Positions 3 through 61,604 of a DNA stretch of 64,000 bases are shown one piece after another. Under the pieces are notes generated by a model. It searched no databases. It saw only the letters and a list, made by a program, of their open reading frames with translations, and was not told the origin of the DNA. The first letter of the stretch is position 1; every line of letters starts with the position of its first letter. Source of the stretch: a virus; the IMG/VR virus record IMGVR_UViG_3300031715_000003, positions 1 to 64,000 of that record, one strand, 5' to 3'. The position numbers and the translations under genes were made by a program.

Positions 3-185
3 TCCAACTCGAATGGACAGATAGCAACCGAGGATGCCGATACGCTGGCGGCGTTTCAAGCGGCGCTCAAGAGCACGCAGTACTTGGCGCTGACATTCGG
101 CGGCGGCTGTTACTACGGGCATGGTGTCAACGTGAGCGGAGGGACCGCGGAGTTCACGCTTCTGACTTACGGATTATTTAAATGA
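3..185 (+). CDS. 3' part of a hypothetical protein (runs off the window start)
   Basis: Frame 3 reads ...LALTFGGGCYYGHGVNVSGGTAEFTLLTYGLFK*. Its stop overlaps the next ATG (ATGA at 182-185). Confidence 0.6.
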   Translation, partial: SNSNGQIATEDADTLAAFQAALKSTQYLALTFGGGCYYGHGVNVSGGTAEFTLLTYGLFK

Positions 186-3100: not shown

Positions 3101-4528
3101 GGCGCACCCAATCTAGTATGCACCACCACAGCGATGAGCACCGCGGTGACCTGCAACGACACGACTGGGGTATCGCCTGGGATGCTGATGTATGGCCCAG
3201 GACCAGCAACTCTCGGCACGGGTGCGTCGGTCTCGACGGTCAATAGCGGTACGTCACTCACGCTAAACGTTAATGCGAACTACACGGCGACCGGTACCGC
3301 CCAGTTCATTCTATCGAGCGGGTTCGGAGGGTCTTTTCCATATTGTGTCGATGGATGCAGCTTTGATAAAAACCAGGAAGAGTTCAAAGAAGTTTTCGGA
3401 GCGTTGAGCGATGGAAACTGGTGGCAGAATGGATGGGCGCCGGGGCTAGCCAGTCAAAGCGGGGAGTGCCTGCTGCAAAACAAAGTGGACTCCAATCTGG
3501 ACGACGTGGTGTCGTATGTCACCTATACTAACAATCGGTGTGATTCCACCCCACAGGGATTGGCGATCGGGCAAGCCGGAATTAATCCATACGTCCATGA
3601 GAACTCCAATTCCGTGTTGATAAACAATCTGTTTACCAACATCGGCCTACCGCAGATAACGCTGCCAGTTTTGGGAATCGGATCTGCCACGATGACATAC
3701 GTGGGCAACTTTGACCGCACCGTGTACCAGAACAATACGATGCTGCTGAACAATTCCCAATTTGGAATGCTCGGCAATGGTGTATTAACGTGCATGGGCA
3801 ACACCTATGGCTTCTTGGCATGGTCCAGCAACGTCGCCAACATCGGCTATGGAAGCTGGTACGACCAGTGTGATTCACTGGGATTCGGTAACAGTTCACC
3901 AGGATTTAACGTGCTAGCGAACGACTACGCCACTTCGGATCTAGGGCTCGGCACCATCATTGTAACGACTCAGTCCGCCTGCGAACCGGGCGCCTATCCG
4001 CCACCGTCTGGGAACTGCGGCCAGATAGGATGGGCGAACGGTGGCTGCAACGGATGCACCTACCCGACATCGCTATCCACGACGTTCCAATCGTACCCGG
4101 CCAATCTTGCCGTTGCGTCTGCGTATCAGGGGACGGGTTATTTGGGCTACGATCCCGGAGCCGATATCAACGTGGTGACGTGGAGCACGAATGGCAATTC
4201 GGGCTGTCCCGGCAGTACTCCATGCGGCGCACCGAATGCGTATTTGGATTTCAGGATAAAAGATCCGCTGGTCATGCCCACATCGGTCACGTGGTATTCA
4301 TATCGCGCGCTGGACACTGGGGCCTGCACCGTAACGATCGCAACACAGCCGCCGGCACCGGGCAGCACTACGCTGACGAGTGGGATCGTTTACGGGCCTA
4401 CCAGTGACGGCGGCGGCAATCCAGAACGGAGCCTGACCGTCACCGGCCTAACGGCCAAAACAGAATATTGGTACACGTTCGTCTGCACTGGAAGTGTGTA
4501 CCGAAGAGGGAATTTCAGCACTCCATGA
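182..4528 (+). CDS. Large Cys/Gly/Thr-rich right-handed beta-helix (pectin-lyase-like) protein with a Sec signal peptide; candidate tailspike or surface protein
   Basis: 1448 aa ORF. N-terminus MMKLATLLLILVAPSWA, a GNDGNPGT..PWQT motif, parallel beta-helix repeats (YNYSHDNDGAG, IRYNVSQND) and many paired Cys. Confidence 0.7.
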   Translation: MMKLATLLLILVAPSWATNYYINGSTGNDGNPGTLSLPWQTITRVNSGTYSPGDSINFSGGQTFSGNAVFTTGSCGTQSNPITITSYGSGYATINGGTGSAIEIYECGGYTVNNLITVGSGNTTNTGVGVFAYLDLANTTLYGITFGPNLTSSGFNYGFGIGSFNGASGYTNVLIQGVNAFGNNEGLGIYGDNSPTNAYFCHTNLNVINSTFHDNPGTSGGGNGMFMSSVNGGSIKYSLAYNNASNANGGVGFEIYEAQNIVLEYNESHHNHTNGVNDGDGFDCDGGSVNCTMQYNYSHDNDGAGFLDYAYGGGPNTTGTTIRYNVSQNDGRKNGNSCVRVGNGSTAGTGLSGSEIYNNTCYISGIASQSVDGMDIPSGNSTTNVHFRNNIIAVSAGTGGTVNLVNVPGSHTGLLFQNNDYWAYSGATNYNWGGTNYTTFAAWQTASGQEKIGGTNVGLTEDPGLVSPGNGQTLGLLGNSQLTAYRLASDSTITFAGQNMQSAFSVNPGNQDFWGYGIPYMGGYSVGASQVPFTTPAARAFTVCPSGCNYADPNSAESALTSLAPNWPILDAPYIFEWTAGDTFTQTVNLLSPNNGQGYFTCTETSGSAALSCPVILDPQTAVKVVTGMTVAGLGVPTGVTVSSITGTGPYTVTLTSAPTLATAYCSSGASPCQTCTWNGSSVVCTQVGVFYFGSAQWVVHRSSAECAPPGQRAGSQNTTYGPSATITPVAGMALLITPSGRSPAIQANPTNAPGAPGVSYHRFECLELAESTVTNQEVFQVVQLGNQPPGGQALVAQQASAMAHHNAFNHIYSHAYVDPANSNFAHAFITDSAYLEITNSTLMAFHTSEEAHGFATDNSIGPFYLRNNEFESTGIGTIFGGNAPNMGGAKVTGAQFIGNYYYRPWLWRVTSGTATPANTFSPSTCLYDSNGGESYYDATSNHTYLCVAGTWTDQGAGTPAQPYCNTGTCTAGGAPNLVCTTTAMSTAVTCNDTTGVSPGMLMYGPGPATLGTGASVSTVNSGTSLTLNVNANYTATGTAQFILSSGFGGSFPYCVDGCSFDKNQEEFKEVFGALSDGNWWQNGWAPGLASQSGECLLQNKVDSNLDDVVSYVTYTNNRCDSTPQGLAIGQAGINPYVHENSNSVLINNLFTNIGLPQITLPVLGIGSATMTYVGNFDRTVYQNNTMLLNNSQFGMLGNGVLTCMGNTYGFLAWSSNVANIGYGSWYDQCDSLGFGNSSPGFNVLANDYATSDLGLGTIIVTTQSACEPGAYPPPSGNCGQIGWANGGCNGCTYPTSLSTTFQSYPANLAVASAYQGTGYLGYDPGADINVVTWSTNGNSGCPGSTPCGAPNAYLDFRIKDPLVMPTSVTWYSYRALDTGACTVTIATQPPAPGSTTLTSGIVYGPTSDGGGNPERSLTVTGLTAKTEYWYTFVCTGSVYRRGNFSTP

Positions 4529-10588: not shown

Positions 10589-11356
10589 CTACTCCTCTGC
10601 GTCTGATCCGCCGATAATTTGCACCAAGTCTTCTGATCCGCCGATTACCTTCGGCTTGGGCATCTTGTCCATGGCTTTTCTGGTTAGCCCTCGCATGATC
10701 TCCTTGGTGCCGGAGGACAGCCCTGTACTAAGCTGGGGGCGATTCGCAGGGACGCCGTAAATATTAGACCATTCGGGTCCGTTGCTGACCGTGTTGATCA
10801 CCACGTAACAGAGGGATCCGTCGACCTCAACATAGGCGCTTCCGCCCTGCCCGATGAAGGCGTAATCCCAGATACACGTCCCGTCAGATTGCCACCCGCA
10901 TACCCAAAATGTCACGTTCGGGCTGGCCAGCGTACTGGTCGAAACTCCGGCCCACGGCGGTTGGGGTTCGCTGCCTACTGTGTACCCCAATACAAAGCTG
11001 GCCCCTACTCTTCCGATGTCGGGCGAGCCCTTAAACGTAATGCGCTGGTTCACCTCGTCGCACGCGGATATGGTCAGCGTCCAATTTGGTATCACCACGG
11101 CCGGATATCCTGGAGGCGGCTGCGGGACCGCGAATTCAAAACCCAACAAAACCGTACCTCCGACGGCGACCTCGAAGTTCTCCAGCAGACCTCCGGCTGC
11201 CAGCGGAGAGATAACCGCAGCCGGATTGACGTTGCTGTCGATCCCCGGCTGAAACGTGATCGGGCCTATCACTGGCTGACCGACCAAATTACTGCACTGT
11301 TGCTGCGCGACGGCGCAACAGGCAGATGCCAAAACGAGCATTACGACGTGTTTCAT
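10589..11356 (-). CDS. Secreted hypothetical protein
   Basis: Signal peptide MKHVVMLVLASACCAVA; AAGGAG SD. Confidence 0.65.
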   Translation of the reverse strand: MKHVVMLVLASACCAVAQQQCSNLVGQPVIGPITFQPGIDSNVNPAAVISPLAAGGLLENFEVAVGGTVLLGFEFAVPQPPPGYPAVVIPNWTLTISACDEVNQRITFKGSPDIGRVGASFVLGYTVGSEPQPPWAGVSTSTLASPNVTFWVCGWQSDGTCIWDYAFIGQGGSAYVEVDGSLCYVVINTVSNGPEWSNIYGVPANRPQLSTGLSSGTKEIMRGLTRKAMDKMPKPKVIGGSEDLVQIIGGSDAEE

Positions 11357-11366
11357 AGTTTCTCCT

Positions 11367-11750
11367 TTACGTTTCTCTGGACTTCTTGCCCATCCGATTG
11401 TGGTACTTCACGGTCTTGCGCCGCTTGATTTCGCGTTTCCACTTCTTCTTCTGCTGCCGCTTGATCATTAGCTGGCCGTCAACGTCCCGCGATCCATCCT
11501 TGCGTGACTCTCTTAGAAAAGAGCACAAAGCACTAGAGGCCATCCATAGAGCGCATAGAACGGCTCCAGCAAGCATTGGCACACATACGTTAAAATCAAT
11601 CCACGTGAAGACATTCGTTCTGCTTTCGTCCTGTGTAATTCCAAAGATGGGATACCACCAGACGTGAGCAGTGGTATGAATTGCAAATAGCGTGAATATG
11701 ATAGCCAGTATCGCCATGAACACAGAGGCCGTGCACGCCGCCTTTCTCAC
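11367..11750 (-). CDS. Two-TM membrane protein with a basic tail
   Basis: GTG start overlaps the upstream stop; two hydrophobic helices. Confidence 0.5.
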   Translation of the reverse strand: MRKAACTASVFMAILAIIFTLFAIHTTAHVWWYPIFGITQDESRTNVFTWIDFNVCVPMLAGAVLCALWMASSALCSFLRESRKDGSRDVDGQLMIKRQQKKKWKREIKRRKTVKYHNRMGKKSRET

Positions 11751-12286
11751 CGTTGCGCTCCGATCACACCTTGCCAGCATGAACTGGCCTGCAGGGGATA
11801 GCTTGCGGCCGGGTCCACCAGCCCAGCCAGGATTGCGGTGGGGTCGGGAGCCCGCCCTTGGATCTGGCTTGCCAGCGCCACAAGGCTTCCGGTGAGGACC
11901 ACGCCAGCCGTCTCCCACTTCGATTTGTTACGCTCCGCGATATTGATTACGCCAGAAGTCGCGGCTCCGGTAGCGGCTCCCGACAGTATGGGAGTTCCCC
12001 ATCCGAACCACTTGCGCCAGTCATCTGCCGCAGCGTGCTGCATCGCGGCCTTTACCGCTGGCGGGATCAGCGTCACGTATCCCGCGGAGAATGCCTGCCG
12101 ATACAGATCTCCCCCCGATTGCGTTGCCGGCGTAGTCCCCGCACACACCGTCACCGACAGGAGTTGCAGATGCTTCATTGGACGCCCGGTCGCCGTCTTG
12201 AGAACGTCGGCAGACTGCGGGGAGAACGTTGCTGGCAGAAGCTGCGCCGACAGTGGGAGCGCGGCGAAAATAAGGAACCATTTCAC
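11747..12286 (-). CDS. Secreted hypothetical protein
   Basis: GTG start (MKWFLIFAALPLSAQ), coupled to the upstream stop. Confidence 0.55.
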   Translation of the reverse strand: MKWFLIFAALPLSAQLLPATFSPQSADVLKTATGRPMKHLQLLSVTVCAGTTPATQSGGDLYRQAFSAGYVTLIPPAVKAAMQHAAADDWRKWFGWGTPILSGAATGAATSGVINIAERNKSKWETAGVVLTGSLVALASQIQGRAPDPTAILAGLVDPAASYPLQASSCWQGVIGAQR

Positions 12287-12948
12287 TTGGAAGGCCCTGC
12301 TCCAATTCGATACGGTGGCGGGATCCCGTGATCCACTTTCGTATACGGAATGTCCCCGCATAGTTTCCACCCGATGGTAGTTTTGCACCATTTCTGAGAA
12401 TCTGAGTGAACAACGAAGTTATCGATGAAACGATCATCCACCCACTCAGGCTCCATGTGCGGCTCTCCAAGCTCCAGATGGTAATCCCAGTGGCCCTGAA
12501 TTTCCTCTCCCCACTTTCCGACTAGCCTCACGGTGGATTGCTGTTCCAGCAAGAAGTGCCGCTTGCAGTAGAAGGTTCGAGCGAAGCTCATGTAGCCGTC
12601 GAAATTGGCTTCCCCTCCCACTGATCTCCATTCCGAGTCCTTCTGCTCTGGTGCGACGGTTTCACAATCGCGATAAACCTGAGAGCTTTCTTGAGGCAGA
12701 CCAAAATTTACGATCTCTCCAAACCACATGTCCCCGTACTCCGCGACGTATTTGAAGCCGTGGATATCGATCTTGCGCTCGAATTGCCCGCGTAATTCGA
12801 TCACGCCTTCGCGGCAGTGGAACCATTTCTCGACAGAATTCTCAACTACCCGTCGAGCCACTATCGTACAGTCGTGGTACTCAGCAGAGTATGAACCAGA
12901 GGTTTGCCCGACCAGCGGAAGCGCGAGGAGTGCGATGAGGAGCTTCAC
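12283..12948 (-). CDS. Secreted hypothetical protein
   Basis: Signal peptide MKLLIALLALPLVG; GTGA overlap. Confidence 0.6.
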   Translation of the reverse strand: MKLLIALLALPLVGQTSGSYSAEYHDCTIVARRVVENSVEKWFHCREGVIELRGQFERKIDIHGFKYVAEYGDMWFGEIVNFGLPQESSQVYRDCETVAPEQKDSEWRSVGGEANFDGYMSFARTFYCKRHFLLEQQSTVRLVGKWGEEIQGHWDYHLELGEPHMEPEWVDDRFIDNFVVHSDSQKWCKTTIGWKLCGDIPYTKVDHGIPPPYRIGAGPSK

Positions 12949-37641: not shown

Positions 37642-38205
37642 ATGGAACGGAAGAGATATTGGGCGCATGTGGATGGAGCGGGGCAAGCGGGTACGGAGTT
37701 GATCACTTCAGGGTGGGGCGAATGGATGCCGGAGGCTGGCGACATCTTCACGATCGATGGAGTCTATGGAGTGAATCCTGATGGCGAAAGCTGGACAGGA
37801 CGGCTCCAGTATTTTGCGATGCAGGAAAGTCCGAAGAAACTAGCCACTAATGGTAATGCGGTTTTGACCATCGCGCCCGCGATCATCCCAAGTGGGAAGT
37901 TCAGGACGGTAACGAACTCGCCGGCGAACGGGGCACGGATTCAACCGGTTGATCCTATACTCTTTGGAAGCGACCTCCCTAAGGGGAGAACGGTTTTGAA
38001 GACTAAGGAATTGAAGGAGTTAAGGAAAGCGCTGTCACAACAGCACGGGGCGATGGCCAAGATTGCTAGGTCGCTTGGGATCTCGAGGACGGCTGTATCG
38101 TTGGTGCTGAATGGGGTGAGCAAGAGCGAGAGGGTGTTGAAGGCTTGTAAGGCAGCGGTGAGGGGAGAACGCTTTGGAAACCAAGGTCCGCGGGTGGATA
38201 ATTAA
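37642..38205 (+). CDS. Coat-protein I-domain-like module fused to a Cro/XRE-like HTH
   Basis: The N-terminal half aligns with the coat segment AGQ.G...GD....GVY.VNP...TG.LQ.F...I.P.II..G...TVTNSPANGA. The C-terminal half reads MAKIARSLGISRTAVSLVLNG. Confidence 0.8.
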   Translation: MERKRYWAHVDGAGQAGTELITSGWGEWMPEAGDIFTIDGVYGVNPDGESWTGRLQYFAMQESPKKLATNGNAVLTIAPAIIPSGKFRTVTNSPANGARIQPVDPILFGSDLPKGRTVLKTKELKELRKALSQQHGAMAKIARSLGISRTAVSLVLNGVSKSERVLKACKAAVRGERFGNQGPRVDN

Positions 38206-49337: not shown

Positions 49338-50906
49338 GTGGCAGCCCTCAACCAAGAATCCGTAGAGAAGAGCGCGAGCGCATTCCAAGCGGAACTAGCG
49401 CGGCGCCGGGAATCTCGCCCTGAGAACCTCACCCGCTTCAAGGAAGACCCACTGGGCTTTATCCGGTGGGATTTCCCATGGGGGAGACCTGGGCCGCTCG
49501 AACGGTTCGAAGGCCCCGACGTATGGCAGGTGGACTTCCTCACGGAACTGGGGGAACTCATTCGGAAGCGCGAGTTCGACGGAGTCAACTCTGTTGCGCC
49601 CATCAGGATGACGCGCACTGCTGGCAAGGGCGTGGGGAAGTCGGTAATGGCCGCCTTCCTCACCAGTTTCCTTTTGAAGTGTTGGAAACTCTCCAAGGGG
49701 ACCGTCACGGCCAACACCTACGTCCAACTTGAAACCAAGACGTGGGCGACCATCAGCCAGTGGCTCAGAATGTCGCGATCGTCCTCCCCCTTTGAAATTC
49801 GCGACTCCGGCGTCTACCACAGAGTGGAGCGCAAGGCGTGGTCTTGCACTCCCCAGACATCGGACGAAAAGAACAAGGAAGCGTTCGCCGGCCAGCACGC
49901 CGCCACCTCAGTACAGTACTACATTTTTGATGAGTCCTCGGCCATAGCCGATACCATCTTCAAGGAAGCCGAGCGCGGACTTGTGGATGGTATGCCCATG
50001 ATATTCGTGTTTGGGAACCCGACCAAATCCACCGGTACGTTCTTCCGTATCAATTTCGGAGACGAGAAGGAACGATGGAACCACGGCATCATCGATTCCC
50101 GAACCTGTAAGATTCCCAACAAACAGGAACTCGAAGACACCATCAGGCTGGCCCCGGGCGGGGAGGACGATGACGACGTCCGCGTCTATATCCGCGGACT
50201 TCCGCCATTGTCGAACCCATCGATGCAGGTCATCGATCCTCAGCGAGTCTACGACGCGCAGAAACGGACTCCCGAAGTCCTGGATGACGAACCGCTAGTG
50301 GCGGGCGTCGACCTGTCGCGCGGCGGCGGCGACCCGGCCGTCGTCCGCTTCCGCCGTGGCAATGACGCGCGTAGCATTGCGCCTCGAAAGCTTTCTCCCC
50401 AGGAGACGCGCGATTCCATGCAGGTGGTAGGGTACTTGTCTGATTTGGCGAAGCATTCCTTTGGGGGGAGGAAGGTGGCGGCGTTCTTTATTGACGGGGG
50501 CTCCATGGGCGGCCCCATCATTGATCGTCTGCACCAGCTCGGGCTGAATCAATTCATCGAAGTGCAGTTCGGAGGCGGAGCCCCGCAGCCGGATCGCTAC
50601 GCAAACATGCGGGCCTGGATGTGGTTTCAATTGGCTGAGGCGCTGGGGAGTCGGCTCGCGATTGACAAGGACCCCGTTCTGGAATTGGACTTGACGTCAG
50701 TGGCACCAGGCAGGCGCGACAAAAAGAACCGATTTGTTTTGGAATCGAAGGAATCTATGAAAGCGCGGGGATTGGCCTCCCCCAATGACGGTGATGCGCT
50801 GGCCCTCACTTACGCGCGGACGGTAGGACCGCAGCGCCCAGAGCGCATTCCACCGAAAAGGAACTACAACATCAAGCCCGAGGCTGGTTCCTGGATGGGG
50901 CTATAA
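49338..50906 (+). CDS. terL: Terminase large subunit
   Basis: AGKGVGKS (Walker A), YYIFDES (Walker B), FGNPT, and nuclease motifs AGVDLSRGG, FIDGG and SPNDGDALALT. Confidence 0.92.
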   Translation: MAALNQESVEKSASAFQAELARRRESRPENLTRFKEDPLGFIRWDFPWGRPGPLERFEGPDVWQVDFLTELGELIRKREFDGVNSVAPIRMTRTAGKGVGKSVMAAFLTSFLLKCWKLSKGTVTANTYVQLETKTWATISQWLRMSRSSSPFEIRDSGVYHRVERKAWSCTPQTSDEKNKEAFAGQHAATSVQYYIFDESSAIADTIFKEAERGLVDGMPMIFVFGNPTKSTGTFFRINFGDEKERWNHGIIDSRTCKIPNKQELEDTIRLAPGGEDDDDVRVYIRGLPPLSNPSMQVIDPQRVYDAQKRTPEVLDDEPLVAGVDLSRGGGDPAVVRFRRGNDARSIAPRKLSPQETRDSMQVVGYLSDLAKHSFGGRKVAAFFIDGGSMGGPIIDRLHQLGLNQFIEVQFGGGAPQPDRYANMRAWMWFQLAEALGSRLAIDKDPVLELDLTSVAPGRRDKKNRFVLESKESMKARGLASPNDGDALALTYARTVGPQRPERIPPKRNYNIKPEAGSWMGL

Positions 50907-50948
50907 TGATGGACGGGTTAAGCATTAGAGCTTCCTATCAATCGACTT

Positions 50949-51106
50949 GGGGGGAGTACGGCGACAGACGTTCTCCCCCCGTTTTTCCTTGCGTTGCGAT
51001 GCTATGCGCCGACGAGATTTGCGGAGACGAGATACGCCAGGCTCCGACGAGCGCCGACATGCCGTGACTTCCTTACGACTATACCAAGATTATGGTATCT
51101 TCTGAA
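50949..51106 (-). ncRNA. Candidate ncRNA: promoter, 5-nt periodic tract and hairpin (copy B)
   Basis: TTCAGA-17-TATAGT on the - strand; G at every 5th + strand base from 50991 to 51066; same 15-bp end as copy A; GGGGGGAG..CTCCCCCC stem. Confidence 0.5.
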
Positions 51107-51392
51107 GCAGGAGATTCCTGATGACGAGTGCCAGCGGCAAGAGGCCCACACGGCCTGAAAAACGCAAAGTGCTTCACTTCCATGGAGAGCCAGCGCAAAA
51201 CGGTTTTCTCATTCATCACAGATTGGAGCCCCGGAAAATTCCACGCGCTGGCGGAGGGAGTATGCCGGCAATGGATGACGTGGATCCGAAACCCTATATG
51301 GCCACCGACAAGCAGTCCGCGCTCGATCACATCAGCGGATTGATGGATCAAATGGGGCCGTCCGATCAGAGTCCGGACCAAGCCGTCGCAGG

Positions 51393-51620
51393 GTGAAATT
51401 CCCGCTGACCATGACCCGCATCGATCCAGTATTGCTCCTGCTCTTCCTCGGGATGCTGGTCTTCACCGGGTTGTTGCTCCTCATCTCTAAGTGGAGTCCC
51501 AACGATGGCCAGACCTTCCAGGTAATTTCCGGCTTGCTCACCGCCTTCTCTGGCGCATTCTTTCTCCGCATCAAGCCCAAAACCGAAGATAAGACACCAC
51601 CGGAACCGCCGGGGCAGTAG
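51393..51620 (+). CDS. Two-TM small membrane protein (holin-like topology)
   Basis: Two hydrophobic helices and a charged C-terminal tail. Confidence 0.5.
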   Translation: MKFPLTMTRIDPVLLLLFLGMLVFTGLLLLISKWSPNDGQTFQVISGLLTAFSGAFFLRIKPKTEDKTPPEPPGQ

Positions 51621-51632
51621 AATAGAGGGAGC

Positions 51633-52070
51633 ATGAACGGTCTCCTCTGTCCTCGATGCGAAAAGCCGCTCTCGAAGCATCATGAGGGGGAGTGCCCTCG
51701 CCACCACGTCAGTCGGCGCTTCTTTTTGGGATTTTTGGGAACCGCATTTGGAGCCGCAGCGGCCGCAAGCGTTCTCCCCAATGTAGAACTAGATGCGCCC
51801 CAAGGCGACGGGATACTCGTAACGGCAACGCCCAAGATTCACTCTGGTGCCACCATCACGGCTGAGCATTGGGGAAATTGGTACTGGATGGGGACGTCCT
51901 CAGATCCGCGCGCTAGGGCGATGTGCGAGGACGCCAAGCAGATTGCCGCCCGTCGCCACCGCTCCGTAATCGTGAGGAACAATGGTCAGGTGGTATGCCA
52001 TGTGGACTTCGACAAAAATGGGAAGATGGTGGTGACGGAATATCCCACCGAAGGAGATCGGCTTTTGTGA
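51633..52070 (+). CDS. Hypothetical protein with an internal twin-arginine motif
   Basis: CPRC..H...C, then SRRFFLGFLGTAFGAAAAA. Confidence 0.55.
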   Translation: MNGLLCPRCEKPLSKHHEGECPRHHVSRRFFLGFLGTAFGAAAAASVLPNVELDAPQGDGILVTATPKIHSGATITAEHWGNWYWMGTSSDPRARAMCEDAKQIAARRHRSVIVRNNGQVVCHVDFDKNGKMVVTEYPTEGDRLL

Positions 52071-52323
52071 AAGCGACGTTCGTTATCGAAGTGGACAACA
52101 TCTCGGTTGGCGCGATCCCACAACTTCAGCGCTACCTAGAGCGTCAGGTGGAACTGATCAGTTGGCCGGGAGGTCCATCCGGAAGTGTGCGGCGCTGCGA
52201 ACGTGCTGCCTACAAGTTGGCGGAAATGTGCTCTGGCGCAGATATGGCGAACCAGACTCAGGGGGCATGCTTGGCACCTGGCCAGAGTCTTGAGGAGTTC
52301 TGCGACCTCTACGGGAGGTTTGC

Positions 52324-52620
52324 ATGATAACGCGAAGAGGACTGATTGCGGCAATCGCGGCGGTGTTTCTGCCGAGCCGCAAGCGTACTCCCCCAAATAC
52401 GCTGTACTGGCGAAAGCCTATCCTGGTCCCCGTTACCCACGGCGACTGGCCATGGCTACAGCCGGTTTCAGAGCCAGAACTGGAGACTGAATCTGTCTGC
52501 CTTCTCACAAACCGCGCCATCGTCGGAGAAATGCTCGATGTCCTTCATCGGGACATAGTGATAGCCAAAAAGGTAAATCGCAGGTACGAACAGAGATTAG
52601 GAGCATCATGGCCAAGTTAA
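52324..52620 (+). CDS. Tat-like leader fused to a coat N-arm-like segment
   Basis: MITRRGLIAAIAA...LLTNRAIVGEMLDVLHRDIVIAKKVNRRYE compared with coat FLTIGMVTYEMLMVLHNLVVAAKKANRNYE. Confidence 0.7.
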   Translation: MITRRGLIAAIAAVFLPSRKRTPPNTLYWRKPILVPVTHGDWPWLQPVSEPELETESVCLLTNRAIVGEMLDVLHRDIVIAKKVNRRYEQRLGASWPS

Positions 52621-53484
52621 GCAGCAAGCCATCCGAGGGTACGATTGAATCTCCCCCCACAGCGCAGCGCCGGGCCGCGTTCAACACGGAGATGGGAATC
52701 CAGAACCGGCGAGTCACGGGGGTGACACGGAATCTCTTGCGCGCCTACCAGCAGTCGCCCGGGAGGTTCCTACCCAAGACCAAGGCCCTGGACGTGCTGG
52801 CCAATATGCGGAAGCCCGGCGAGAAGGGGGCGGTATGAGGCTTGTCGGCCTGTACGTGCGCGCGCATCGTACTGACAGAATCATGCTTAATCCGACAGGG
52901 CGAGGTCTCTACCGTCAGTTCCGCATCGGGTCGAACCAGAACATCGATTGGTTTGAACGTCGCCATCCCAAGGCATTCGTTTTCCCTGACAGGTGGCACT
53001 GGAGGGGAGCACGCTCTTGAAGCACAAGGAGTTGTACTTGCATTCACACCGATGGGTGAAGCATTCTGGGAGTAGAACGCACTCCTATTGGGTATCGCCG
53101 CACAACGGCAAGATTTACATCAGGGCGTTCGCGGTCCAGATCCAACGTGGTTACGACAAGAGGGCCATTTGTGAATCGCTCAAAAAAGAAGCAATGAAAC
53201 AAAAATCGGCGCCACCGTGTGCGGCGCAAACAGAACCGCCAAAAGATGTGTCTGCCCCAGCGGCCGAAGGGGCGACTCTAGCGTGACGTGCCGCAAAACG
53301 GCGATATCGTTCTCATTAGGCAATCGATAGGGGGCAAGACCCACTACTTCATGATCGATAACGTGAGCCCCGAGCGATATGATCGCACCGCCATCCAGGA
53401 GGAGGACGGAATCGCTAGGCTTGCCGTGCAGCACGCTTCTACAATTTCCGCCGACGTGATGGAGGAAGAAAGCAGGCTCCCCTA

Positions 53485-53748
53485 GTGGAACAACAACTCC
53501 CGCGATACCGCTGCCACAAAGAAGTGCGGTCCTTCAAGATCGACCAGATCAATCCTGGGAGACTGGACGGCCAAGGCCCTGGTGCCACACTCGTCTCGTT
53601 GACGATTCCATTGTCCATTTCCGTTGGAGAAGAGTATCTCCACAAGCATGACCCTGAGCCGGGTGGATATTACGTCCGGTACGCTGACGGATACGAATCG
53701 TTCTCCCCATGCGCTGCATTTGAGGAAGGCTATACGCTGATATCCTGA
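53485..53748 (+). CDS. Conserved-type small phage protein
   Basis: LPRYRCHKEV...PEPGGYYVRYADGYESFSP..AFEEGY. Confidence 0.65.
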   Translation: MEQQLPRYRCHKEVRSFKIDQINPGRLDGQGPGATLVSLTIPLSISVGEEYLHKHDPEPGGYYVRYADGYESFSPCAAFEEGYTLIS

Positions 53749-53945
53749 TGCCAGAATTCCTCGAGCAAAAACTTCGCTCCGAATACGCCGCCAAAGGGAA
53801 GAAGGGGAGAGCGCTCGACGCGGTGGTATACGGCACTCTGAACACCATCGGGGCGATGAGGGGCAATAAAATTACAAAAAAAGGGCGAGCCATGGAGCGC
53901 AAGCACGAGCGTGATACCATTTCCTCTATGGCCAATCGAAAATGA
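53748..53945 (+). CDS. Small basic phage protein
   Basis: TGATG coupling; VYGTLNTIGAMRGNK.T.KG. Confidence 0.6.
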   Translation: MPEFLEQKLRSEYAAKGKKGRALDAVVYGTLNTIGAMRGNKITKKGRAMERKHERDTISSMANRK

Positions 53946-54976
53946 CACCAGCGAACCAACTGCAAGGAATCCCGGAAGGCGTGGAGGTCATCGACTACTT
54001 GCCAGCCAGCTCCGATGATTTCGAACTCCTCCGCTTCTTCGATGACCCCATCATCATCAAGGGAGGGCGCCCGCACGCTTCGATCTCGATCCGGGTTAAG
54101 CCAGCGCAAGGCTATTGCTTCATCGAGGGGAAACTCCTCCAGCAGGCCGATATCAGGGCGCTCGGCACGACGACGCTGCAAACATATTCGGCCACGAAGG
54201 TTCTCCCTCCGACCGTCATTATGGCAACCATCAAGTTTTCGGTGGAGAACGCTATCGATCAGGCAGCGGTGGAGCAGGCGCTGGAAGGGTTGCGCCAAGT
54301 GCGGGGATTCAATTCGTTGGAGAAGGCATGAATATGGCAGAACTAAATCCGATTACTGACGTAGAACGTTATATCGACGCCAAACTTCAAGAAGGATTGA
54401 CGGCGCTGGAAATCAAGATCAAGATTGCGATCGCCGTGGAGGATGCGCGCATCGCGCTAGCCCGTGCCCTTCAACTCGATGATGATCCGAAGAACAAAGC
54501 CAACTACAGCGCGGCACTGACGGCTCTGGGGGAATAGTGGACTTCGAGCGATATCTCCTTAAAGCCCTCGGTGGTGCCGATGATGGATTGCTCTCCCTGA
54601 GGGTGGAACCGCTGGAAGACGGATCTGGCCACTACGTTTACGTGGACCCACTGGGCGATAAGGAAGTCTTTATGCTGAAAGGCAACGAGCTGGTCCCATT
54701 CGGATTTTTCGATCCCGCCGAAAGACCAAAAGCGTTCTCCCCCGATGAGTCACCGCTTCAAACGTCCTAAGCAGTTCCTCAATCAGGGAACTCCCCTGGC
54801 GAGACTGCGGAAGCACGTAGAGCAGATCCAGACTCAGGAGCAGTTCGACGCCTTCCTGGAAAAGCTCAGACCTGATATTCGTGCCGCCGGACTCCCCATG
54901 ATCGAATCCTGGCTAAAGTTTGCTCCTCGAAACCTTGCTACCAAGGCCAACGCATCACGCGCTGCCGAGTTAGCCG

Positions 54977-55213
54977 TTAGCGAGGGGGAGTACGCTGTAG
55001 AAATTGAGACCGGGCCTTTATTCTCCTAAGGCGGCCCACCACGGCAAACAATCGCCCTAGATTGGTATGCTTGTGTCCGATGTGCCAGCCTCCGCACTCC
55101 TCGCATTCGTAAGGAGTCATCCCGCCGTACCCCTTTTTGGTCATAGCGCGGCAAGCGTTCGATGCGGTTTCCCGATGCCGGTACCGAACCTTTCCCGTGG
55201 CTTCGCACGTCAT
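54977..55213 (-). CDS. Small zinc-finger protein, antisense to the late arm
   Basis: C..TGKVRY...A......PYECEECGGWHIG. Confidence 0.55.
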   Translation of the reverse strand: MTCEATGKVRYRHRETASNACRAMTKKGYGGMTPYECEECGGWHIGHKHTNLGRLFAVVGRLRRIKARSQFLQRTPPR

Positions 55214-55273
55214 CTCTCCCCTGCTGGGCCCTCCCGGCGCACTTTCCATTTTAGACCAGTTCTCCCCCAACAT

Positions 55274-55303
55274 TTGCATTTCAAAACATTTCTGCTGTAT
55301 AGT
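55274..55303 (+). promoter_or_regulatory. Promoter of the portal-scaffold-coat operon
   Basis: TTGCAT-18-TATAGT, followed by a leader of about 100 nt with three hairpins. Confidence 0.6.
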
Positions 55304-55407
55304 GTGAATCAGCGGGGACTTCCCCGCCAATAAGAGAAGAACACCGCACCTGACCCGTCGTGATGACGGTGATGGTCGACCCCGGAAGTTTCGGGGGGAG
55401 TTCATAG

Positions 55408-57642
55408 ATGGATCCAAACTCCGTCACGGCGATGTCGCCGGCGCAGGTCCATTCGTGGCCTGTGCCGATGAATCCCCAATCCTATTCGGGCCAAATTTTT
55501 ACCGACGCCGACGCCGAAGACGCGTTCCTCAAAGAAGCGCTGGAGCGTTTCAAAACCGCCGAAGACGCCGAACGCAAGCTCCGCGAAGAGATGGAGGAAG
55601 ACCATCGCTTTGCCTGCGGAACCCAGTGGCCCCAAACCATCCAAGCACAGCGCCATGCCCAGGATCGACCCACCCTCTCGATCAACCGCGTCCCTGAATT
55701 CGTCTCCCACGCCGTAAATAACCTTCGTCAGAACCGGCCGATGATCAAGATCGTCCCAGTGGGGGACGGTGCCACCACCGACATCGCCAACCTTCGGCAG
55801 GGGCTGGTCCGCCACATCCAGCAGAAATCCAAGGCGGAGACAGTTTTTGACGAAACGGCCCACATGATGTTCGAAATGGGGTTGTCGTGGATCCGCGTGG
55901 TGGCCGATTGGGCCAATCCTGAATCTTTCGATCAGGAACTCTTTATCCGCTGGATCCGCAATCCCTTTACGGTCTACTGGGACCCGTTCTGCACGCAGCC
56001 GGACTGGTCCGACATGAAGTGGCTCTTCATCATCGAGGACCTTACCAAAGCGGAATTCCAGACACGCTTTGGGGAAGACGCACTAGCGATGAGTTGGCCC
56101 ACCACGGAAAGCGGAAACTCCACTCCCTCGTGGTTCCCGGAGGGCAAGATTCGGATTGCCGAGTACTTCCGGGTCAAGATCGTGGAGGACAAGCTCTGCC
56201 AGCTTGAGGACAAGACCACGCGGCTATTCTCGGAACTCCCCAAAGGCATGTATTTCGTGGCCGAGGTAGAGAACGGCAAACCCGGCGAACTCGGACTTTT
56301 TGAAGAAGAGACGAAAGCGTATGTCGGCAAAGCTCGCGAGACCAATGTACCAGAGGTCTGGCACTACCTGATGAGCGCCCGCAAGGTGCTGTCGAAGACG
56401 AGGTGGTTAGGGTCGCGCATTCCCGTTCTCCCCTGCATTGGACACCAGACGGAATTTGAAGGCGAACTCAGCGTGGAGGGCATGGTGCGGTGGGCACGGG
56501 AACCGCAGCGCATGTACAACTACATGTACTCCTCCTTTGTGGAAGCGGTGGCGCTTACGCCCAAGGCGCCGTTCATCGCGGAGGTGGATCAGATCCCGGA
56601 TGGCAATGCAGAAGAGTGGGAGAAGGCGAACCAAAAGCCGGTTGCCGTCCTGCGATACAAGGCCAGGTCAGAAGGCGGCCAACTTCTTCCTCCCCCCATG
56701 CGGCAACCCGCCACTCCCGATATCGCGGCGTTTAGCGCCGGGCTGCAGATGTCGGATGCCAACCTCAAAGCCGTCTTCCGAATCTACGATGCTTCGCTTG
56801 GACAGCGGGGCCCCCAGGAGTCTGGGCTTGCGATCAATGCCCGCAAGGTGGAGTCCGATACCGGGATTTTCAACTGGGGCGATAACTTCCTGAGGTGCCT
56901 CCACAACGTCGGCTGGGTCCTGAATGAACTCCTACCGTTCTACTACAACAGCCCGGGGAAGGTGATCCGCATCCTCCAGGATGATGACTCCCGCAAGGAA
57001 GTCGTAATGAACCAAGCATTCCTCGAACAGGGACAGAAAAGGATTTACGATCTCGAACAACAGGGGGAGTACGGAGTAGATATTTCGACCGGGCCATCCG
57101 TCCAGACGCTGCGGCAGGAGAAGGTCAAGGGCATGATCGAGTTTTTCCAACTGTACCCTGCAGGTCTCCAAGCCTGCGCCCATGTCCTGGTAAAAGAATT
57201 CGATTTCCCTGGAGCGGAGAAGATTTCGGCGCAACTCGAGAAGCTTCTCCCACCGGCCCTGCAGACGCCCGATCCGGACTCCCCGCCTGATCCCAATCAA
57301 CTTCAATCGCAGATCGGGATACTGACGCAGCAGAACCAGCAACTATTGGCGGCCCTCAAGGAAGCGAGCGACAAATTCAACCTCGAAGCCATGAAGCAGT
57401 TGCACGCCGATTGGCGCAACCAGCAGACCCAGGAAGTGCAATTGGCACTGGGGCTGAGCCGCACGGGCTCCGAGGAAATCAAGTTTTTATTCGACCGGAT
57501 GTTCAGCGAGATGGAGCAACTGCGCCAGCAAGTGGCGGCAGGCTCTCCGGGAACTCCGGCGACGCCGGGAGTGAACTCCCCTCCGGCGACTCCGACTTTA
57601 CCTCCAACGGCGGGAGGGCAGACGCCGTCCGTGGGTCCCTGA
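55408..57642 (+). CDS. Portal protein, P22 gp1-like
   Basis: FACGTQW, RPTLSINR, VYWDP, GMVR.AREPQRMYNY, ESGLAINARK and V.ISTGPS..T.RQE; followed by scaffold and coat. Confidence 0.92.
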   Translation: MDPNSVTAMSPAQVHSWPVPMNPQSYSGQIFTDADAEDAFLKEALERFKTAEDAERKLREEMEEDHRFACGTQWPQTIQAQRHAQDRPTLSINRVPEFVSHAVNNLRQNRPMIKIVPVGDGATTDIANLRQGLVRHIQQKSKAETVFDETAHMMFEMGLSWIRVVADWANPESFDQELFIRWIRNPFTVYWDPFCTQPDWSDMKWLFIIEDLTKAEFQTRFGEDALAMSWPTTESGNSTPSWFPEGKIRIAEYFRVKIVEDKLCQLEDKTTRLFSELPKGMYFVAEVENGKPGELGLFEEETKAYVGKARETNVPEVWHYLMSARKVLSKTRWLGSRIPVLPCIGHQTEFEGELSVEGMVRWAREPQRMYNYMYSSFVEAVALTPKAPFIAEVDQIPDGNAEEWEKANQKPVAVLRYKARSEGGQLLPPPMRQPATPDIAAFSAGLQMSDANLKAVFRIYDASLGQRGPQESGLAINARKVESDTGIFNWGDNFLRCLHNVGWVLNELLPFYYNSPGKVIRILQDDDSRKEVVMNQAFLEQGQKRIYDLEQQGEYGVDISTGPSVQTLRQEKVKGMIEFFQLYPAGLQACAHVLVKEFDFPGAEKISAQLEKLLPPALQTPDPDSPPDPNQLQSQIGILTQQNQQLLAALKEASDKFNLEAMKQLHADWRNQQTQEVQLALGLSRTGSEEIKFLFDRMFSEMEQLRQQVAAGSPGTPATPGVNSPPATPTLPPTAGGQTPSVGP

Positions 57643-57664: not shown

Positions 57665-58930
57665 ATGGCAATCAGAATGGACTCGAACACTCAAGAGGAT
57701 TTTCAGCAGGTCATCAAGCACTACGGGTTGGAAAACCTACCCGAAGCGCAGGCGGCTTCCGAAGAGACTCCAGTGTCGGAACCACCCTCCGAATCCAAGG
57801 AAGAGCCTGGCGGGGAACCCGCTGGGGAGCCCAAGGATAAAAGCGCGGCCCCTCCGGAGGAGGTCAAAACAGAAACAACGCAGGAGGCTCCTCCTGTAGG
57901 GGAAACCGAAGACGAAAAGAAGAGAAAGAGTGGATGGGCCCGCAAGGTCGAGAAACTAACGGCCCAAGTAGATGCGATTCGTGAGCAACTAGAGAGCGAA
58001 CGCGGCAACTCCCGTGGCCTCCAGGAACGCCTGGAGGAAGCGGAGCGACGACTTGCGGATGCGACGGGATCAGAACCGGAGCCTGAGGTAGAACAGGGCC
58101 CGGTTCGTCCCAAGCGTCCCAAGACGCCGACCCTGGCAGAGCACGACGGCGATTACGAGAAGTGGAGTGCGGCTATGGTGCAGCACGATGTCCTCCTCGA
58201 CAAATACGAGGAGGAGATGGAGCAGTACCGCACGCAAGTCACGGAACGGGCGATCGCTGAAAATAGTGCCAGGGCCGAACAACAACTCCGGGAAAACGAA
58301 ATTGTCCGCAGTTTCGTGGATCGCCGGGATGCCGGAAAGAAGATTCTGGCCGAATCCTTGGATTCCGAGGAAGTCTCATGGGCCGAACTATTCGGGGATG
58401 GCAACGGCAATCCCGGGATTGTCCGCGACAGCTTCATGGACGCTCCTGCCGACAATCCGCAAGGTGGTGCGGCGGCGGCCAGGGACTGGATCAATCGCAA
58501 ATCCAAGAATCCGGCTCTTTTGCTCTATCACTTCGGTCTTGATTCCATACACAGCGGCGCGGAGAACCAGCGCTTCCGCGATATGGATGCCTTCGATCAA
58601 ATCGTCGAACTCAAGGCGCTAGATGAGCGTTTGGGAGCGGAAATTGCGGCCAAGAAAAACGGCCGCACTGAAGCAGCCCCACCGCCAAGACAAGAGCGTA
58701 CTCCCCAGCAGGAACCTCCCGCAAGAACACAACCACGTCCCGCCCACAGGGTACCGGAACCTCCGATCCCAACCGTCGGTGGCCACTCCATACGAGCGAC
58801 CGCCGATTCAACGGCTCAACTGGCCAGACTCTACGAGGAAGGCCGTAAGACCGGGGATATGAGTGCCTACCGGCAAGCGCGGGAACAGCAGAGAGCTGCT
58901 GAAGTCGCGGCGGGGAGGATACGCCCTTAA
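57665..58930 (+). CDS. Scaffolding protein
   Basis: Acidic disordered N-terminus, coiled coil and PEPPIPTVGG near the C-terminus; lies between portal and coat. Confidence 0.75.
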   Translation: MAIRMDSNTQEDFQQVIKHYGLENLPEAQAASEETPVSEPPSESKEEPGGEPAGEPKDKSAAPPEEVKTETTQEAPPVGETEDEKKRKSGWARKVEKLTAQVDAIREQLESERGNSRGLQERLEEAERRLADATGSEPEPEVEQGPVRPKRPKTPTLAEHDGDYEKWSAAMVQHDVLLDKYEEEMEQYRTQVTERAIAENSARAEQQLRENEIVRSFVDRRDAGKKILAESLDSEEVSWAELFGDGNGNPGIVRDSFMDAPADNPQGGAAAARDWINRKSKNPALLLYHFGLDSIHSGAENQRFRDMDAFDQIVELKALDERLGAEIAAKKNGRTEAAPPPRQERTPQQEPPARTQPRPAHRVPEPPIPTVGGHSIRATADSTAQLARLYEEGRKTGDMSAYRQAREQQRAAEVAAGRIRP

Positions 58931-58956: not shown

Positions 58957-60207
58957 GTGGCTAATTCATTTCTCACCATCGGCATGGTCACATACGAAAT
59001 GCTGATGGTGCTTCACAACCTTGTGGTGGCGGCCAAGAAAGCGAACCGCAACTACGAGAAACAATTCGCGCGAGTGGGCGCCAAGATCGGACAACAGGTC
59101 CAGATCCGCAAGCCCCCGCTCTACACCGTCACGGATGGTCCTACGTTTGTCGCGCAGGATTACGCCGAAACCAGCGTCCCCTTGACGCTCAACAAGCACA
59201 AACAGGTGGGCGTTGAGTTCCTCAATGATGACCTCGTGCTCAGCATGGACGATTTCCGTGGTAGATTCCTCGAGCCCGCCATCGTTCCCCTTGCGAACAT
59301 TGTCGACACCGACATCATGTCGCTCTACACCATGGCTTGGGAATTCACCGGCACCCCCGGCGTCACCCCGGCCCAAGACCTGCCGTTCCTAGACGCCAAA
59401 ACCCTGATAACGGCCAATGCCGCCGGCGGAAGAATGTGGCCCATGATCGTCAGTTTGACCACTGACGCTCGCCTGTCCAGCGGCCTGGCTGGACGCTTCA
59501 ACCCCCAAAAGGACATCTCGGGTCTGTACCTTGAAGGTTCGATGGGGCCCGCTCTGGGATGGGACTTCTACAAGACTCAGAACGTCCAGATCTTCACCAC
59601 CGGAGCATGGTCGGCCAGCGTCCCTGCGACCGGCATCACGGTGAATCTCGCCGGACAAACCGGTTCCACCATCAACGTGACTGGGGCGACCGCTGGTGTC
59701 AACAACATCGGTCTCCTCGGCGATATCGTCCAGTTCGCTGGTGTCTACAAGGTCAACCCCGTAACGTACCTCAACACCGGGTTGCTCCAAAACTTCGTCC
59801 TCACGGCCAACGTAAATTCGGACGGCGGTGGCAACATCGCGCTCCCCATCAGCCCCCCGATCATCATCGTGGGCAAGGGCCAGACCGTAACGAACTCCCC
59901 GGCCAATGGCGCGCAGGTGCTGGTGTGGGGGAATCAGAACGTCGCGCAGGTGGCCAGCGTCACCTCCGCTCAGTGCATGGGATGGGCCTCGGAAGCCGTC
60001 ACCATGGCGATGGCCGATCTCAAGGTCTTCGGTGAAGGCGAGGGCGTAAAGTGCACCCGCATGGCCGACGACGATCTCGGGATGAGCGTGCTGTATACAC
60101 GCGGAGTGGACATTCGCGAATTCTCCGAGATTTCGCGCATGGACATCCTCTACGGCATGACCATGCCTCGTCCGGAACACGCCGTCAGGGTGGCGGCGAT
60201 GTCGTAA
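58957..60207 (+). CDS. Major capsid protein, P22 gp5-like
   Basis: MANSFLT, KIGQQVQIRKP, DLVLSMDDF..RFLEPA..LAN.VD, I-domain GVYKVNP and RMDILYG....RPE.A.R. Confidence 0.93.
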   Translation: MANSFLTIGMVTYEMLMVLHNLVVAAKKANRNYEKQFARVGAKIGQQVQIRKPPLYTVTDGPTFVAQDYAETSVPLTLNKHKQVGVEFLNDDLVLSMDDFRGRFLEPAIVPLANIVDTDIMSLYTMAWEFTGTPGVTPAQDLPFLDAKTLITANAAGGRMWPMIVSLTTDARLSSGLAGRFNPQKDISGLYLEGSMGPALGWDFYKTQNVQIFTTGAWSASVPATGITVNLAGQTGSTINVTGATAGVNNIGLLGDIVQFAGVYKVNPVTYLNTGLLQNFVLTANVNSDGGGNIALPISPPIIIVGKGQTVTNSPANGAQVLVWGNQNVAQVASVTSAQCMGWASEAVTMAMADLKVFGEGEGVKCTRMADDDLGMSVLYTRGVDIREFSEISRMDILYGMTMPRPEHAVRVAAMS

Positions 60208-60240: not shown

Positions 60241-61110
60241 ATGAAAACCTTTAGACTGATCGCTCTCTTGTCTCTGGCCAGCGCCATTGGCTCTGCCCAA
60301 TTGAACGTGACATCGACCACGCTCGCGGCTGCCGTTACGTCGGCCAGTTGTCCGGCGGCTGGCTGCACCGTGACGCTTACCAGCGCCACTGGTGTCGTGG
60401 CCCAAGGTCCCAACAACCAAATCAATACCGTGCTCTACGTGGATCGCGAACTGATGTGGGTCACCAACTTCATCAGCGGCACCACTTACGGAGTGCAACG
60501 CGGCAAAAACCAAACGCGCCCGTGGACTCACTCCAGTGGCGCGACCGTCTACCTCGGACCTCCCACCAACAACTTCCTCGCTAACAATGGGACTTCGGCG
60601 GAGACTTGGGGGAGTTGCGTGGCGACCAACGAATACAGTCTCCCCAAGATCTATGTCACAACCGGAGACATCTTCCAGTGCTACAACGGTGCGAATGGAG
60701 GGAATTGGTTCTTGGTCGGGAGTGGCACCGGGGTGACGGTAGGGAAGTCTCTTTCGGCCTTCTGCACCGGAACGGTCGGTAGCGCCGAGACTGAATTCCT
60801 CAACGACGCGGCCTGCTCTGGAGCCACCGCAAACCTCGCGAAAAACGTAGTCGTAACCGGTGGAACGCTGGCAAACCTTAGGGTTTACAGCACTGCGGTC
60901 GCCGTCGGAGGAACCAACAAGGACGTGATGACCGTTTTCAAGAACGGCAGCGCCACCACCATCACCTGTACGATTGCGGCTTCGGCCGCGACGTGCTCTG
61001 ACTCGGGTCATTCCGTCATGACGGTACCGGGTGACGTCATATCGTTCCAATTCGTGACCGCCACTTCCGATACCGCCGCCAATATGGTGGCCTCAGTCGG
61101 TCTGTACTGA
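60241..61110 (+). CDS. Putative virion decoration protein with a signal peptide
   Basis: MKTFRLIALLSLASAIGSA; TTLAAAVT..LYVDRELM..VQRG..T....H.SGATV; directly after the coat gene. Confidence 0.6.
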   Translation: MKTFRLIALLSLASAIGSAQLNVTSTTLAAAVTSASCPAAGCTVTLTSATGVVAQGPNNQINTVLYVDRELMWVTNFISGTTYGVQRGKNQTRPWTHSSGATVYLGPPTNNFLANNGTSAETWGSCVATNEYSLPKIYVTTGDIFQCYNGANGGNWFLVGSGTGVTVGKSLSAFCTGTVGSAETEFLNDAACSGATANLAKNVVVTGGTLANLRVYSTAVAVGGTNKDVMTVFKNGSATTITCTIAASAATCSDSGHSVMTVPGDVISFQFVTATSDTAANMVASVGLY

Positions 61111-61169: not shown

Positions 61170-61604
61170 ATGAAAATGCTGATGCGAATCTGGTGCGGTG
61201 CGTTGCTGGCCTTCATGTTATTTGTAGTGGGGGTATCGGCCGAGCCGCAGCAGGGCAGGATCATCACCATCACGGCGGGAACGGCCATCAGGCTGATTCT
61301 TAACCCCACCACCGTCAAGCCGGTGCTGGCCAACTCCATGCTGATCCAGGTGCAGCATGCAGGAAGTGGCCTCGTTTATGTCCTCAACGCCAACCCGCAG
61401 CAAACATGCGCCCTGGGGAATGCTACGACGACGGAGGTGGCGGAACTGGCCCCAGCTACATCGACAGAGCCCGGGGGATCATTCACGTTCCCTAGCAATG
61501 GGTCGGCAACCACCGGTTCCAGCGGGTTCGATGTCCGGTACTGGTGCGTCGATGGATCCAACAGCGGCGACACCGTGATTGTGTCGTGGGATGTAAGGAA
61601 TTGA
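61170..61604 (+). CDS. Beta-rich protein with a signal peptide in the head module
   Basis: MKMLMRIWCGALLAFMLFVVGVSA. Confidence 0.6.
   Translation: MKMLMRIWCGALLAFMLFVVGVSAEPQQGRIITITAGTAIRLILNPTTVKPVLANSMLIQVQHAGSGLVYVLNANPQQTCALGNATTTEVAELAPATSTEPGGSFTFPSNGSATTGSSGFDVRYWCVDGSNSGDTVIVSWDVRN

Follow-up and report, generated by a model that had tools for sequence, protein, structure and literature searches.

A small gene in the interval between terminase and portal

The window (the whole stretch of DNA analysed, 64,000 nucleotides) covers the initial 64 kb of an IMG/VR virus record that has 94,224 bases and a completeness rating of 98%. It carries a P22-like head module in which terminase, portal, a scaffold-position protein and coat follow one another in that order. 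The large terminase (49338-50906) is a 522-aa frame and the portal (55408-57642) matches PF16510 at E 2e-138. The major coat gene (58957-60207, + strand, 416 aa) is of the P22 type, with matches to PF11651 (E 6.5e-22, 78 bits) and phrog_283 (E 7e-62). Between portal and coat lies a probable scaffolding gene of 421 aa (57665-58930, + strand), assigned from this position, from its acidic helical composition and from a basic C-terminal helix pair. No Pfam family matches this protein, and homologues occupy the equivalent position in the loci L004, L005 and L007. Neither a tyrosine nor a serine integrase or recombinase was found in the whole 94,224-base record; the phage is therefore probably virulent.

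Relatives of the coat are numerous (50-69% identity, on contigs of 50-98 kb), the closest ones, at about 68-69% identity, including P0004, P0005 and P0006, and also P0012, P0016 and P0019. The interval 51000-55400 gave no blastn match to phage records, and IMG/VR queried with the coat alone and with the portal alone returned nothing. An alignment-based search of IMG/VR did recover relatives, the one useful among them being L004, which is the closest relative available (65% identity for the coat, 59% for the terminase). No Rfam family was found within window positions 50800-55500.

The terminase-portal interval holds about ten small, closely packed genes. One of them is an ORF of 98 aa on the + strand (52324-52620, ATG start, TAA stop), which is the subject of this work. 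Its ATG overlaps the TGA of the preceding ORF in an ATGA arrangement, and the start of the following ORF lies inside its last codons, so that it is tightly coupled for translation on both sides. The upstream partner (52067-52327, + strand, 86 aa, GTG start) itself overlaps by its GTG the stop of ORF 51633-52070, and the codon model favours its frame (52070-52327). The downstream partner (52608-52838, + strand, 76 aa) is conserved in L004 (5011-5166; 46% identity, E 9e-12). A Shine-Dalgarno sequence GGGAGG (52313-52318, + strand) stands 5 nt before the ATG. It is stronger than the sites of the terminase, portal, scaffold and coat genes and the best in the neighbourhood. Between 36 and 64 kb, only 4 of the 53 GGAGG sites on the + strand fall 4-9 nt before the start codon of an ORF of at least 50 codons, and that of ORF 52324 is one of these four. 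The codon model is weakly positive on this ORF and scores it only slightly better than the overlapping alternative frames. On balance ORF 52324-52620 looks like a translated gene, and its place in the gene block of the coat suggests a late gene co-expressed with the latter.

The protein belongs to no family of Pfam, PHROGs or NCBIfam. As a whole it retrieved only itself, both in a word-indexed search of 5.8 billion proteins and in a full HMMER scan of 1.84 billion representatives, and a structure search of the protein atlas with it gave no match.

Three parts can be told apart in the product. The leader (aa 1-18, 52324-52377) comprises two Arg, 11 hydrophobic Ala-rich residues, Pro-Ser and a basic cluster; AF2 predicts a helix over residues 4-15 with a pLDDT of about 70. 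It is followed by a Pro/Trp-rich linker (aa 19-51, 52378-52476), predicted to be disordered (pLDDT below 50 over residues 19-47), and then by a long C-terminal helix (aa 52-93, 52477-52602) predicted with a pLDDT of 76-87.

The first-pass annotation of this DNA had described the N-terminus as Tat-like and had pictured the product as tethered to the membrane or exported, where it might anchor procapsid assembly, interfere with rival phages or titrate a defence sensor. Part of the former description holds: residues 3-8 read Thr-Arg-Arg-Gly-Leu-Ile, i.e. the two Arg followed by a hydrophobic run as in Tat signals. The Tat models PF10518 and TIGR01409 do not match the ORF even at E <= 10, and on reading the sequence no small-x-small cleavage site was seen after the hydrophobic run, where Pro-Ser and the basic cluster stand instead. 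The best 19-residue hydropathy window reaches 1.06, which is too low for a membrane span. Given the lack of model match and cleavage site and this low hydropathy, "Tat-like" fits the first eight residues only and does not place the protein in a supported class. As to tethering, the same hydropathy value, at which no membrane-spanning anchor is predicted, and a hydrophobic run of only 11-12 residues speak against it.

Some neighbouring genes also have distinctive N-termini. The 145-aa ORF at 51633-52070 has a zinc-ribbon-like Cys-x-x-Cys start and then an internal Arg-Arg hydrophobic segment, which scores 14.3 bits on TIGR01409 (cut-off 16.7); it matches weakly a minor tail protein family (phrog_21056, E 1.2e-4). 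We considered whether it too carries a piece of one of the phage's own proteins and rejected this, since nothing else in its own genome matches it. The 75-aa ORF at 51393-51620, with two hydrophobic stretches and a charged tail, has a holin-like look, the terminase-portal interval being an odd place for a lysis gene. Classic Sec-type signal peptides are present at the start of the two proteins encoded directly after the coat (60241-61110 and 61170-61604) and of a 1,448-aa protein (182-4528). In L004 the post-coat proteins have them too (about 11280-12060 and about 12120-12560). In locus L038, the protein homologous to the first of the two is without a signal leader. The signal peptides of the post-coat proteins and of the 1,448-aa protein give some context that favours some link of the small ORF with the envelope.

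A diverged copy of the coat N-arm

The C-terminal helix of the small protein resembles the N-terminus of the coat. The tblastn search of the window with the ORF gave the coat N-terminus as the top non-self match (51% identity over 37 aa with one gap of 3 residues, E 5.7e-5). The homologous segment (52504-52605, + strand) aligns ORF residues 61-94 with coat residues 6-42, and its counterpart in the coat gene, located by tblastn and Smith-Waterman alignment, is 58972-59082 (+ strand). The Smith-Waterman score of the ORF against the coat is 73. In the comparison with shuffled sequence that had been proposed along with the original claim, the shuffled ORFs scored 28.7 +/- 4.3 with a maximum of 60, none of the 20,000 reaching 73 (Gumbel p about 1e-6). 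With a profile made of the first 60 columns of 32 close coats, the ORF is found at E 6e-7 among 25,639 six-frame segments, and with a broader profile of 79 coat N-termini at E 2.3e-5. Its matches further include the N-termini of the coats from 11 other phage loci. The resemblance claimed at the outset is thus significant, and the two strings quoted for the ORF are both in it, with a correction to the limits of the resemblance: the 30 coat-like residues then called C-terminal are aa 60-89, and nine residues follow them.

Most of the residues which the coat family keeps are retained. Of the five invariant positions in the copied helix L6, M15, L19 and H20 are conserved and N21 is lost; G41 and A42, past the gap, are kept too, as is the acidic residue aligned with coat E14. 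AF2 predicts an alpha-helix over residues 52-93 of the ORF and over residues 8-27 of the coat (mean pLDDT of the coat model 78). Since this coat helix falls inside the copied segment, the copy spans the entire N-arm helix. The alignment of this coat with solved P22-type coats begins only near residue 100, and P22 residues D14, E15 and E18 are not mappable onto the coat studied here.

At the DNA level copy and coat are 56% identical over 30 ungapped codons. Synonymous sites are saturated (pS 0.76) and pN is 0.35, a ratio that gives moderate support only, because it rests on 30 codons and is biased, amino-acid similarity having been the means by which the fragment was detected. The persistence of amino-acid similarity in spite of saturated synonymous sites nevertheless points to constraint, since without it such similarity should have disappeared from so old a fragment. 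At the level of sequence comparison, the C-terminal helix of the ORF is confirmed as a true, old and diverged homologue of the coat N-arm.

The homology is restricted to this arm. By tblastn within the window it does not extend past the N-arm into scaffold or intergenic sequence. The body of the HK97 fold (P domain, A domain, E-loop and insertion domain) is absent, the ORF stopping 4 residues beyond the homology, and the Pfam search gave no PF11651 match.

When the coat was compared with the whole 94,224-base record, three places only matched: the coat gene itself, 37675-37941 (E 4e-11) and 52504-52605. This agrees with the earlier statement that the phage keeps two different coat fragments in separate genes. 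The other fragment belongs to ORF 37642-38205 (+ strand), in which a piece of the insertion domain (aa 10-100, homologous to residues 229-321 of its own coat, E 6e-12) is joined to a helix-turn-helix part (HTH families at aa 118-175). The coat region 229-321 matches solved insertion-domain structures, e.g. 6mpo. The P22-like element L027, of roughly 34 kb, has a coat that is closer to this ORF than the phage's own coat is (49%, E 5e-21 and 41%, E 6e-12 respectively).

Among 86 coats, the own coat of the window phage ranks first for the small ORF, by a margin of 2 score units. We examined whether best match to the coat of the same phage could be a rule for such small proteins. The window ORF and that of L087 rank their own coat first, but those of L038, L055 and L004 rank it 6, 26 and 85, and the rule was abandoned.

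Look-alike genes in other phages

In L004, the block between terminase and portal contains a 91-aa ORF (L004 5166-5441) which starts by a GTGA overlap behind a purine-rich site and whose end overlaps the next conserved gene. Its leader, composed of Arg-Arg, about 11 hydrophobic residues, Leu-Pro and then basic residues, resembles that of the window ORF. Its C-terminal half matches the broad profile of coat N-termini at E 6e-4, the match extending to the first strand motif. BLASTP detects no pairwise similarity between the two small proteins (E 2.5). The coat-like part of the L004 protein is far closer to other coat clades than to the coat of L004, which ranks 85 of 86, so that mimicry of the own coat is not a rule; the best score is with the L027 coat. 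That the two ORFs are counterparts is probable but unproven. In neither of the two large protein libraries did ORF 52324 as a whole have a homologue, so that its conservation rests on this single, very diverged positional look-alike.

Insertions occur in the head genes of these phages. The large terminase frame of L004 (2023-4551) has 842 aa against 522 in the window, and the extra part is intein-like, starting with Cys and ending with His-Asn then Cys; a 224-aa HNH-type ORF (3738-4412) lies inside it in another frame. In L065 (5676-6760) the coat gene is in two pieces: the N-arm, of about 32 residues, is encoded some 0.9 kb upstream of the remainder, with a 239-aa ORF bearing HNH-type motifs in between. 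No Rfam family, including no intron family, was found in the L065 insert.

A search for N-arm-like segments outside coat genes yielded small ORFs in L038 (13912-14220, - strand) and L055 (3741-4067, - strand), both opening with the canonical Ser-Arg-Arg-Gly-Phe-Leu and continuing with a helix that is N-arm-like. A metagenome search seeded with these two ORFs returned 35 loci (L086-L120), hereafter family A8; a search of genome contigs found no relative of this leader family. The ORFs of family A8 have in common a near-invariant N-module of 38 residues with seven invariant positions, made of an Arg-Arg leader and then a Pro-Phe-x-Arg-Val-Trp-x-Phe-Pro core, and continue with highly variable tails. 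The entropies at the three codon positions are 0.58, 0.39 and 1.52 (31 distinct copies), and the opposite-strand frames mostly contain stops. On this coding evidence the family A8 ORFs are true genes under selection. Of 32 members 21 touch PF10518 at E <= 1, every score quoted being under the cut-off.

Several tails are pieces of head proteins. That of L086 is a copy of the cognate coat N-arm (72% identity over 25 aa, E 1.5e-7), that of L087 copies the cognate coat from the N-arm through the first strand (E 4e-8), and that of L117 copies an insertion-domain strand of the cognate coat (E 5e-4). For these three pairs pS is 0.64-0.90 (saturated) and pN 0.15-0.34. One tail matches the N-terminal part of a different major-head family, phrog_1357 (E 2.6e-4). 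Wherever the flanking sequence sufficed, the phage had a P22-type coat and the A8 gene ran antisense within the late operon, downstream of the coat, with about 15-18 nt separating its start codon from that end of an oppositely oriented late gene where the latter starts. This antisense placement suggests that the two would be expressed in a mutually exclusive manner.

The window ORF shares with family A8 the association of a leader with a capsid piece, in phages with P22-type coats, and several A8 tails copy the N-arm as it does. It differs by its location, on the sense strand of the terminase-portal interval, whereas the A8 genes are antisense in the late operon and downstream of the coat. The A8 N-module profile, which finds L038 at E 1e-18 and L055 at E 1e-14, does not match the window ORF at E <= 10, and hhalign of the window leader against the family gives a P of 0.016 only, with Trp and Pro in register. 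The window ORF would thus be either a very diverged member of A8 or an independent build of the same design. The search for homologues combining an Arg-Arg leader with a coat fragment, proposed in the first-pass annotation, was fruitless for the whole ORF among the 5.8 and 1.84 billion proteins; the design itself is seen in the L004 look-alike and in those of the 35 loci whose tails copy a coat piece.

Possible roles of the product and known systems

In P22, the coat N-arm (residues 2-30) forms a helix in the procapsid (PMC9965877). It docks on the C-terminal helix-turn-helix of the scaffold, D14, E15 and E18 contacting R293 and K296 (PMC9965877, PMC12005531), and the interaction between N-arm and scaffold mentioned in the first-pass annotation is thus documented. 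Our preferred reading is that ORF 52324 is a real accessory gene of the head block of a probably virulent 94-kb phage, and that the most likely role of its product is competitive mimicry at the N-arm interface. We hold it tentatively, with a probability of about 0.42. The protein would consist of a short, signal-like hydrophobic helix, a disordered Pro/Trp linker of about 30 residues and a helix of about 40 residues that copies the N-arm. The foremost candidate for binding by this last helix would be the C-terminal hook of the scaffold, the alternative being some other N-arm-recognising protein, and the leader would bring the product to or into the envelope or to another partner. The phage could benefit by tuning its own assembly (availability or release of scaffold), by disturbing a co-infecting relative or by occupying a host sensor. 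We infer competitive mimicry as the most economical role because the element copied is the scaffold-docking handle of the coat, because it is carried on a flexible linker and because the gene stands among head genes. The design itself has support from selection through its recurrence in L086, L087, L117 and family A8.

A wider proposal is that phages with P22-type heads repeatedly build genes joining a leader to a capsid piece, which are kept under selection, and that ORF 52324 and ORF 37642 are two arms of a capsid-mimic toolkit. Acting at capsid interfaces, these would poison or steer the assembly of co-infecting relatives or blind a capsid-sensing immunity. We regard this proposal as doubtful. 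If true, it would define a class of virus-encoded self-mimics, undescribed in the literature searched. That the design recurs in soil phages unrelated to one another, where purifying selection on it is clear, suggests a widespread, as yet unnamed function. The copied element being short and recognisable, such genes are open to discovery by sequence search, and the in vitro reconstitution of P22 assembly makes them directly testable.

The main rival of the preferred reading is that ORF 52324 is a decaying leftover. A 5' piece of the coat gene would have been copied to an ectopic place, for instance along with a mobile endonuclease element, and have landed in frame behind unrelated sequence; the ORF would be open by chance and do nothing. 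Its plausible origin is suggested by L065, where the insert with its HNH-type ORF interrupts the coat just past the N-arm, so that the junction between N-arm and body appears as an entry site for mobile DNA. Traffic of homing endonucleases is visible in this phage group, e.g. in the L004 terminase, and, the G+C being 56%, every frame has many ORFs of 100 codons. We consider a leftover unlikely, and keep it as the main rival because of the orphan status of the ORF in both large libraries and of its weak codon signal. Unconstrained drift does not account for an amino-acid similarity that persists while synonymous sites are saturated. A copying accident also fits poorly with a strong ribosome-binding site at the right spacing together with overlaps with both neighbouring genes, and with a homology that is confined to the N-arm and enters neither scaffold nor intergenic DNA. 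Moreover the same design is held by selection in other phages, and L004 has an intact and coupled look-alike.

Another possibility is a genuine Tat (or Sec) signal in the Arg-Arg leader, the protein being an exported or envelope-anchored capsid piece whose N-arm copy acts outside the cytoplasm. The order of Thr-Arg-Arg, hydrophobic run and basic cluster is consistent with this, a basic cluster after the hydrophobic run being found in the Sec-avoidance regions of Tat signals. So are the classic signal peptides of the proteins encoded right after the coat in the window phage and in L004, the Arg-Arg segment of the neighbouring ORF 51633, although under the TIGR01409 cut-off, and the contacts of the A8 members with PF10518. 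A protein language-model search of ORF 52324 returned look-alikes that include Tat-signal proteins at 0.79-0.86, rated as leads only. Export remains quite improbable in our opinion: no Tat model matches the ORF, its leader has no evident cleavage site and a hydrophobic run too short for an anchor, and the known partners of the N-arm are cytoplasmic.

Lower still in likelihood we place an anti-defence decoy, in which the helix would occupy a host immune sensor of the coat N-terminus and not trigger it. Capsid proteins are known triggers of several defence systems, and the gene, lying in the same block as the coat, is judged to be co-expressed with it. On the other side we know of no defence sensor that reads a P22-type N-arm, nothing in the sequence favours a decoy over scaffold binding, and the leader has no role in such a scheme. 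Finally, a chance similarity between two amphipathic helices, conceivable for a helical segment of just 37 aa, can practically be dismissed in view of the shuffling test, the profile E-value of 6e-7, the 11 independent coat N-termini matched and the family-invariant positions kept.

Returning to the competitive mimic, its parts and its presumed action can be set beside known systems. With the N-arm of P22-type coats (PF11651; gp5 residues 2-30) the ORF has in common the sequence homology to coat residues 6-42, the predicted helix and most of the invariant residues. It differs in having the arm alone, as the C-terminal part of a 98-aa protein that begins with a leader and a disordered linker. 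Its leader is like Tat signal peptides (PF10518, TIGR01409) by the Arg-Arg near the N-terminus, the moderately hydrophobic Ala-rich run and the basic residues that follow, and differs from them by the lack of model match and of a recognisable cleavage site and by the shortness of the hydrophobic run. No paper on genes designed as a leader plus a capsid piece was found in the literature searched.

Proteins that act on virion assembly are nevertheless known from prophages and satellites, namely the assembly blockers Tab (PMC10884400), Tai (PMC11364771) and TerI (10.1101/2025.02.27.640495). Like the product of ORF 52324, they are small accessory proteins from in or near virion gene blocks. They differ in their targets, which are tail assembly or the terminase, in their expression from prophages and in being accompanied by counter-proteins, and none of them is described as copying a capsid piece. 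In contrast, the record of the window phage is without integrase and the gene is on the sense strand of the head block.

The nearest parallel in action is CpmB of SaPI1, which competes with the scaffold of phage 80alpha for the capsid protein (PMC5644958). It too is a small accessory protein, and its contact with the capsid runs along the capsid-scaffold interface, including the N-arm helix (PMC5644958). CpmB comes from a satellite, in our reading replaces the scaffold side, and its binding is demonstrated; ORF 52324 is encoded by a phage, copies the coat side and is known from its sequence. If its helix does compete at the coat-scaffold interface, it would be a phage-encoded copy of the assembly handle of the phage's own capsid. 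Capsid assembly could then be regulated or sabotaged from the coat side, the mirror image of the SaPI1-type hijack, which operates from the scaffold side.
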